Below, in pieces: positions 41,596 to 41,875 of a stretch of DNA of 64,000 nucleotides. Origin of the DNA: Escherichia coli. Lineage in GTDB: Bacteria > Pseudomonadota > Gammaproteobacteria > Enterobacterales > Enterobacteriaceae. The notes beneath the pieces were generated by a model that saw only the letters and a list, made by a program, of their open reading frames with translations, was not told the origin of the DNA and ran no database searches. The translations under genes and the position numbers were made by a program. Position 1 is the first letter of the stretch. Each line of letters begins with the position of its first letter. The stretch lies in NCBI RefSeq assembly GCF_041886205.1, contig NZ_CP169029.1. The stretch is one strand, 5' to 3'.

Positions 41596-41875
41596 TAGCT
41601 GCATCAGGTATGTAACGCCTGATGCGACGCTGACGCGTCTTATCAGGCCTACGCGCTGTGTTTTTGTAGGCCGGATAAGCAAAGCGCATCTGGCATTCAG
41701 CGCCTGATGCGACGCTGGCGCGTCTTATCAGGCCTACGCGTTCCGATTTTGTAGGCCGGATAAGCAAAGCGCATCCGGCATTCAACGCCTGATGCGACGC
41801 TGGCGCGTCTTATCAGGCCTACACGCTGCGATTTTGTAGGCCGGATAAGCAAAGCGCATCCGGCACGAAGGAGTC
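41596..41875. repeat. BIME: three tandem REP-pair units between araA and araD
   Basis: Three near-identical copies of gcctgatgcgacgctgRcgcgtcttatcaggcctac ... gtaggccggataagcaaagcgcatcYggca. Confidence 0.88.

Follow-up and report, generated by a model that had tools for sequence, protein, structure and literature searches.

A z2/y BIME-2 array between araA and araD of Escherichia coli: identity, allelic variation and putative influence on ara mRNA

The genes araBAD form a single operon, transcribed from P_BAD only on arabinose induction, and in the Escherichia coli chromosome analysed here (contig NZ_CP169029.1, a stretch of 64,000 nt hereafter called the window) araA and araD are separated by 284 bp of largely repetitive DNA. 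The question raised by this locus is what kind of element occupies the gap, and whether it does anything for the operon in which it lies. We consider it probable, at roughly 0.85, that the array is a BIME-2, that it behaves as a non-autonomous REP element, that the number of its units has expanded and contracted within Escherichia, and that its transcript has a dual effect similar to that of the REP325 element.

Position and anatomy of the repeat array

The intergenic spacer (41595-41878) begins after the araA stop codon, which ends at 41594, and runs to the araD ATG at 41879 (Table 1). The identity of the upstream gene is further supported by a 100%-identical record (NZ_AP045833.1), in which it is annotated as araA, and the wider neighbourhood comprises araB (ribulokinase) and araC upstream and DNA polymerase II downstream. 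The araA open reading frame called by program opens at a TTG codon (40068), overlapping the end of araB; the alignment to the NCBIfam araA model, complete at both ends, starts at the ATG at 40092 (500 aa) and corresponds to the 1,503-bp araA in RefSeq.

Tandem Repeats Finder reported a single array (41614-41865; period 85, 3.0 copies, 93% matches, no indels, score 448), and a repeat search placed three in-register copies at 41601, 41686 and 41771, each 85 bp from the next. These 85-bp units stand head to tail, with pairwise identities of 92.4%, 93.7% and 96.2%, and the differences among them fall mostly within the 13-nt linker. An earlier note on this DNA had described three near-identical REP-pair units at 41596-41875, occupying the entire 284-bp spacer. 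The three units (3 x 85 bp, 92-96% identical) and the length of the spacer were both confirmed, and the coordinates were correct to within 3 nt; "entire" was slightly too strong, since the array (41601-41865) fills 265 of the 284 bp and leaves 6 nt upstream and 13 nt downstream outside it.

Each unit consists of a 36-nt palindrome (GCCTGATGCGACGCTGGCGCGTCTTATCAGGCCTAC), a 13-nt linker, an opposed 30-nt palindrome (GTAGGCCGGATAAGCAAAGCGCATCCGGCA) and a 6-nt linker. The short leader that precedes the first unit looks like the 3' end of a y REP followed by a 6-nt linker, as would be left by a truncated extra unit; part of it (GCATCAGG, 41601-08) can pair with CCTGATGC (41618-25), and this pairing is present in the minimum free energy (MFE) fold.

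Table 1. Coordinates of araA, araD and the parts of the array between them (positions in the window).
Feature	Coordinates	Strand	Remarks
araA (L-arabinose isomerase)	40092..41594	+	NCBIfam NF002795, 897.9 bits; TAA stop 41592-41594
Array leader, GTAGCTGCATCAGGTA + TGTAAC	41595..41616	+	22 nt; in register with the unit ends
z2 REP, unit 1, GCCTGATGCGACGCTGACGCGTCTTATCAGGCCTAC	41617..41652	-	GTAG on the minus strand; predicted hairpin -21.4 kcal/mol with internal mismatch
13-nt short linker, unit 1, GCGCTGTGTTTTT	41653..41665
y REP, unit 1, GTAGGCCGGATAAGCAAAGCGCATCTGGCA	41666..41695	+	predicted hairpin -12.1 kcal/mol; 5' GTAG
6-nt linker, TTCAGC	41696..41701
z2 REP, unit 2	41702..41737	-	within Rfam naRNA4 match 41669-41734
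13-nt short linker, unit 2, GCGTTCCGATTTT	41738..41750
y REP, unit 2	41751..41780	+	predicted hairpin -14.3 kcal/mol
6-nt linker, TTCAAC	41781..41786
z2 REP, unit 3	41787..41822	-	REP325 z2 at 35/36 nt; with the unit-2 y REP forms naRNA4 match 41754-41819
13-nt short linker, unit 3, ACGCTGCGATTTT	41823..41835
y REP, unit 3	41836..41865	+	ends 13 nt before the araD ATG
araD ribosome-binding region, CGAAGGAGTCAAC	41866..41878	+	Shine-Dalgarno AGGAG 41870-41874
araD (L-ribulose-5-phosphate 4-epimerase)	41879..42574	+	NCBIfam TIGR00760, 449 bits

At the RNA level, the 36-nt palindromes are predicted to form hairpins of -21.4 kcal/mol and the 30-nt palindromes hairpins of -12 to -14 kcal/mol, and the predicted fold of the whole spacer RNA reaches -137.4 kcal/mol (z = -5.4; z = -6.6 for the opposite strand). 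Neither a sigma-70-like promoter nor an intrinsic terminator (a GC-rich hairpin followed by a T-run; 0 sites) was found within the araA-araD spacer of this window. Moreover, three small open reading frames that cross the array on the minus strand (41591-41785, 41697-41852 and 41782-42003) were set aside as mechanical by-products of the repeat.

Classification as BIME-2 and the K-12 orthologue

The six palindromes of the array have the properties of repetitive extragenic palindromes (REPs). They are imperfect, measure 30 nt (y) or 36 nt (z2), keep the GTAG/CTAC motif intact in 6/6 cases, have an unpaired position inside the stem in every z2 and y fold, and lie entirely outside the coding sequences of araA and araD. 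The family to which they belong is also present in high copy number: a 14-mer REP foot (CTTATCMGGCCTAC) was counted 10 times in the window, where 0.44 occurrences would be expected, and 0/100 shuffles reached that count; a 901-bp query from this locus found matches at a median of 19 sites in an E. coli genome, the additional matches evidently being other REPs.

In E. coli, REPs are of the y, z1 or z2 type; BIME-2 elements combine z2 and y REPs in inverted orientation, with a short linker and in tandem, and a BIME-1 is a solitary y/z1 pair whose long linker binds IHF (Ton-Hoang et al., 2012). In the ara spacer, z2 and y REPs alternate in orientation, separated by linkers of 13 and 6 nt, in three tandem units with a period of 85. 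The REP pairs of BIME-1 (RIB/RIP; y + z1) are likewise inverted, but those elements are single-copy and have a long, conserved IHF-binding L linker, whereas the IHF consensus WATCAANNNNTTR was absent from both strands of the ara spacer; a BIME-1 with an IHF site was therefore discarded on account of the missing consensus and the short linkers.

A known relative is REP325 (naRNA1-6), located between yjdM and yjdN and described in the literature as alternating Y and Z2 units. Like the ara array, it is an intra-operon tandem of alternating y and z2 REPs with the same polarity relative to transcription. The earlier note proposed an alignment to the REP/BIME consensus as a check, and the array does align with reference BIME-2 units: the z2 REP of unit 3 agrees with that of REP325 (reference taken from K-12) at 35/36 nt and the z2 REP of unit 1 at 34/36 nt, and both stem arms of the y REPs are identical, although the top of the ara y hairpin is 5 nt shorter (30 vs. 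35 nt). The two elements differ in the number and period of their units (six units of 100 bp in REP325, three of 85 bp in ara) and in their linkers (12 and 17 nt vs. 6 and 13 nt). Taking the REP325 match of the z2 and y REPs together with the lack of an IHF consensus, the araA-araD array is, by its sequence, a BIME-2 of three tandem inverted z2-REP/y-REP pairs.

Indirect agreement comes from the Rfam family naRNA4 (RF02564), whose model derives from a REP325 unit. One ara unit (41754-41819, plus strand) scores 60.2 bits and thereby exceeds the gathering score (59.5), because the Rfam model is itself a BIME-2 unit, i.e., a y+z2 pair. Matches below this threshold were obtained at 41669-41734 (55.7 bits), at the leader (33.4 bits) and on the minus strand (41.7 and 38.7 bits), the last as expected for palindromes. 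It might be argued from the 60.2-bit and 55.7-bit matches that the array gives rise to naRNA4-like nucleoid-associated RNAs, which would bind HU, bridge cruciform DNA and condense the chromosome. However, any BIME-2 unit scores with this model, on both strands, and the ara array is transcribed only under arabinose induction. This role was proposed for REP325 RNAs (Qian, 2015), but no stable ternary complex of HU, crfDNA and naRNA4 was obtained, the nucleoid was unchanged on deletion or overexpression of REP325, and REP-REP contacts were not seen in Hi-C data (Harris, 2026). Consequently, we regard such a function of the ara array as highly improbable.

The earlier note had also warned of false CRISPR calls. 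The geometry is indeed CRISPR-like, with three 36-nt palindromic repeats at a regular spacing of 85 bp and intervals of 49 nt, but the repeat is the genome-wide REP consensus, and the chance that the locus is a small CRISPR array is practically nil. That candidate was rejected, since the two "spacers" share 88% identity and the array is flanked by araA and araD instead of cas genes; hence the risk of a false call is small. For annotation, the label that suits the locus is a repeat region (BIME-2, six REPs), not a CRISPR, an sRNA gene or a set of small open reading frames.

In fact, the array is already described and has been used experimentally in K-12, and it is ordinary for E. coli, as the earlier note had supposed; its identity can now be sharpened to a z2/y BIME-2. 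The K-12 locus has the same 284-bp spacer with three 85-bp units in the same z2/y order, and differs from the window by 10 single bases and no indels. At one of these positions (41606) the window has A where K-12 has C, and the leader hairpin is thereby perfect in this strain. Over the 901-bp query, identity was 100% to E. coli wlxctx60 and 97.6% to K-12. The MG1655 element is listed as "BIMEs2 66566-66813 araD-araA" in Table DS3 of Sutormin et al. (2019), an interval that maps to 41616-41863 of the window, 1-2 nt from the start of the first z2 REP and the end of the third y REP.

Two activities at the DNA level have been reported for the K-12 element. TnpA-REP cleaves and recombines it (Ton-Hoang et al., 2012). 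Furthermore, it contains three gyrase cleavage sites, observed with ciprofloxacin (Cfx) and also with rifampicin plus ciprofloxacin (RifCfx), and Espeli and Boccard (1997), as noted by the same authors, had found two cuts there (Sutormin et al., 2019). The persistence of cleavage under rifampicin suggests a further reading, in which the main role of the array would be that of a strong, transcription-independent gyrase site providing topological relief or insulation downstream of the heavily transcribed araBA. This we consider unlikely, since gyrase cleaves some BIME-2 elements but not others, one-unit and BoxC alleles of the locus are common, species with just a short hairpin in the araA-araD spacer have no BIMEs there, and no loss phenotype is reported in the literature examined.

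Our preferred explanation at the DNA level is that the array behaves as a non-autonomous REP element. All six of its REPs (6/6) retain the 5' GTAG together with the mismatch in the stem, both of which the REP-associated transposase TnpA-REP (RAYT) needs. Taken alone the feature matters little, being a textbook repeat at a locus that is already a model BIME-2 for work on gyrase and TnpA-REP; the mildly new points are confined to an allelic series, an IS621 insertion and the presence of a hairpin element in the same spacer of all 80 species compared.

Alleles within E. coli and the same spacer in other Enterobacteriaceae

Variation in the number of units was surveyed in 59 rows, sampled at regular intervals along the ranked list of complete E. 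coli genomes. Three units, as in the window (spacer of 284 bp), were present in 20/59 rows and two units (199 bp) in 14/59. A single unit was found in 6/59 rows (114 bp) and, together with a GC-rich BoxC-like element, in a further 17/59 (168 bp); one row (1/59) combined two units with the BoxC-like element (253 bp), and in another (1/59) an IS621 was inserted inside a z2 REP. No array of more than three units was found among 88 sampled rows. The BoxC-like allele is frequent: a junction-specific query places it in 1,562 (28.8%) of the 5,426 complete genomes of this species. In this allele the BoxC-like palindrome TTTTCCCCCTCGCCCCTTTGGGGAGAGGGCCGGGGTGAGGGGAAA replaces the araD-proximal part of the array (396-563 in L004 and 396-648 in L108, two of the loci extracted), and the bases immediately ahead of the araD Shine-Dalgarno site are altered as well; no BoxC-like element was found elsewhere in the window. 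The araD ribosome-binding region (CGAAGGAGTCAAC), in turn, is identical across the one-, two- and three-unit alleles.

The earlier note had regarded the repeats as a potential source of misassembly. Unit number does vary from one to three, but K-12 derivatives had three units, O157:H7 had two and the single ST131 row had one, and because the rows of one lineage agree, the variation is an inherited polymorphism and not assembly noise. Among complete genomes, therefore, unit number looks fixed within lineages.

It is known that IS621 targets REPs, and the insertion in strain TW10690 fits this habit. There, the element, of the IS110 family, lies inside the z2 REP of unit 2 (NZ_CP127034.1; 2796-4273 of the extracted locus L109), at the CT of the CTAC foot (...TTATCAGGCCT, then the IS, then ACGCGCTG), and araA and araD are now about 1.5 kb apart.

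To follow the spacer beyond E. coli, one genome per species was scanned with an AraD N-terminus pattern, which yielded 100 loci, 80 of them with araA directly upstream. The spacers of these 80 species measured 47-284 bp, with none below 47 bp. Every one of the 80 had a predicted folding energy of -17 kcal/mol or below, and in 66/80 the z-score relative to mononucleotide shuffles was under -2. A GC-rich hairpin element, whether REP, BoxC-like or terminator-like, was present in 80/80 species. Single REP pairs occupy the spacer in Citrobacter, Salmonella arizonae, E. albertii and Buttiauxella, and single species-specific REP hairpins in Enterobacter; BoxC-like palindromes (CCCTCTCCC/GGGAGAGGG) are found in Klebsiella, Kluyvera, Pseudocitrobacter and Phytobacter. 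In 10/80 species, including Leclercia, Silvania and Atlantibacter, the coding strand carries an intrinsic-terminator-like hairpin with a T-run, as in Leclercia adecarboxylata (12007-12026 of L074, minus strand) and Atlantibacter hermannii (6691-6711 of L072, minus strand). Tandem amplification was seen only in Escherichia among the 80 species, namely in E. coli and Escherichia sp. MOD1-EC7003.

A y-type hairpin ending 10-21 nt before the araD ATG was detected in 30/80 species, with pairing kept in 96.8% of the cells compared. Compensatory changes occurred at two of its pairs (CG to UA in four Buttiauxella, CG to GC in Cedecea and AU to GC in Lelliottia); these could stem from the REP consensus proper to each species and need not be compensation specific to this locus.

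Two loci of the scan appear to be mislabelled or contaminated. A contig labelled "Chryseobacterium sp. 18061" (L097) holds an enterobacterial araA-araD with E. coli-type REPs, and the spacer of "Citrobacter freundii M-21" (L093) equals that of Atlantibacter sp. RC6 (L071) and is unlike those of other Citrobacter. As a separate observation, the terminator-like hairpins of Leclercia and Atlantibacter sit inside what should be one operon.

These comparisons bear on another alternative, in which the array would be neutral or selfish DNA of no real consequence for ara expression, its REPs having inserted and amplified where intergenic DNA past a stop codon tolerates them. Such a reading is possible, although we doubt it. 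Its main appeal lies in the free variation of unit number among healthy lineages and in the alleles where BoxC-like elements or IS621 replace or interrupt units, and it also agrees with the view of REPs as non-autonomous elements acted on by TnpA-REP. Nevertheless, neutrality sits poorly with a stable hairpin element in 80/80 species, with the lack of any spacer shorter than 47 bp, and with the terminator-like hairpins that some species have instead of a repeat. It also fails to anticipate that pairing is maintained, with compensatory changes, in the y-type hairpin beside the ribosome-binding site of araD, or that tandem gene pairs separated by REPs are biased genome-wide towards the upstream gene.

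A stronger claim in the opposite direction would be that the araA-araD gap is a conserved "slot" that needs a stable RNA hairpin, filled in different ways by different Enterobacteriaceae, and that the allelic series of E. coli dials the AraD:AraBA ratio. We advance this extension very tentatively, as it is rather improbable in our estimate; if it were true, the alleles would affect the build-up of toxic L-ribulose-5-phosphate on arabinose.

Proposed role in ara mRNA

The array stands between tandem genes on the same strand and has no promoter-like site, as would be expected of a stabiliser- or terminator-type element. Co-transcribed from P_BAD, it would place six stable predicted hairpins after the stop codon of araA and ahead of the ribosome-binding site of araD. 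By analogy with other REPs, these most likely form a barrier to 3'-to-5' exonucleases that would protect the upstream araBA segment and, most likely as well, curb transcription into araD in part, through an attenuation that depends partly on Rho. Protection of araBA and attenuation before araD would both bias expression towards araBA. The terminator-like hairpins found at the same site in other genera fit this combination of protection and attenuation. Against it, the plus strand has no excess of C over G (G 83, C 78), and so there is no canonical rut site.

The analogy is drawn chiefly from REP325, which cuts expression of the downstream yjdN 8-10-fold and stabilises the upstream yjdM, with an attenuation that is partly Rho-dependent; on its deletion the downstream gene rises 8-10-fold and the upstream transcript falls (Harris, 2026). 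In the same study, 146 REP-separated tandem gene pairs were biased to the upstream gene, the effects of REPs depended on context, and terminal REPs brought no general gain in half-life (Harris, 2026). Terminator and stabiliser activities were measured for REP325 only, and the ara array is likened to it by sequence; Harris (2026) makes no mention of ara. Similarly, malE-malF and other intercistronic REPs form hairpins between two cistrons and have been proposed to shield the upstream mRNA. There is direct mRNA evidence at loci of the malE-malF type, whose likeness to ara is one of position. Stabilisation by intercistronic REPs was reportedly the subject of work by Higgins in 1982, Newbury in 1987, and Khemici and Carpousis in 2004.

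In this context, the proposal of the earlier note that the repeats matter for 3' stabilisation of araA mRNA relative to araD is a reasonable one, by analogy with REP325/yjdMN and other REPs, and it may be widened, given that attenuation of downstream genes has been reported for REPs as well as stabilisation. For ara itself, a change in mRNA or in the AraA:AraD ratio is inferred only, from REP325 and other REPs; the literature searched yielded no ara-specific REP effects, whether on the half-lives or 3' ends of the mRNA or on the ratio of AraA to AraD. Accumulation of L-ribulose-5-phosphate is toxic, and for this reason a strong attenuation before araD would be risky. Moreover, since alleles with one, two or three units and the BoxC-like alleles persist at high frequency, the exact number of units does not seem to be strongly constrained.

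A last alternative concerns translation. According to a rule cited at second hand, REPs located less than 16 nt past a stop codon stall terminating ribosomes, and by this means the array could lower AraA synthesis. The alternative hairpin of the leader (41601-08/41618-25), which is part of the MFE fold, begins 6 nt after the araA stop and would lie within that distance. In K-12, however, this hairpin is mismatched (CCGG instead of CAGG), and the first complete REP stem, that of the unit-1 z2 REP, begins 22 nt after the stop, which leaves control of translation as a weak and very unlikely reading.

For the preferred explanation, a REP325-like dual effect of the transcript, the natural allelic series (one to three units, BoxC-like and IS621 alleles) is of modest value as a convenient test bed for the proposal that REPs act as stabiliser and terminator, because the operon is well understood and, L-ribulose-5-phosphate being toxic, its enzyme balance affects fitness.

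Beyond the ara spacer, the window holds further elements of related kinds. A REP pair at 36229-36270 lies within 36208-36292, which by coordinate conversion is the published K-12 BIME-2 interval 72137-72221, and a y+z2 pair at 48765-48844 (element 48765-48847) reaches 75.8 bits with naRNA4, more than any ara unit. At 1591-1680 on the minus strand there is a match (104.9 bits) to the Rfam family PssrA (RF02797, "Plasmid-encoded Shigella sRNA A"), a case of a plasmid-named family matching a chromosomal site. This match spans the gap between two same-strand open reading frames of 420 and 383 aa and the adjoining ends of both, which we take, by size alone, to be ftsA and ftsZ. SgrS (29310-29536, minus strand), the leucine operon leader (23181-23330, plus strand) and the TPP riboswitch (32819-32918, plus strand) also exceeded their Rfam gathering scores and are RNA elements expected for this chromosomal region.
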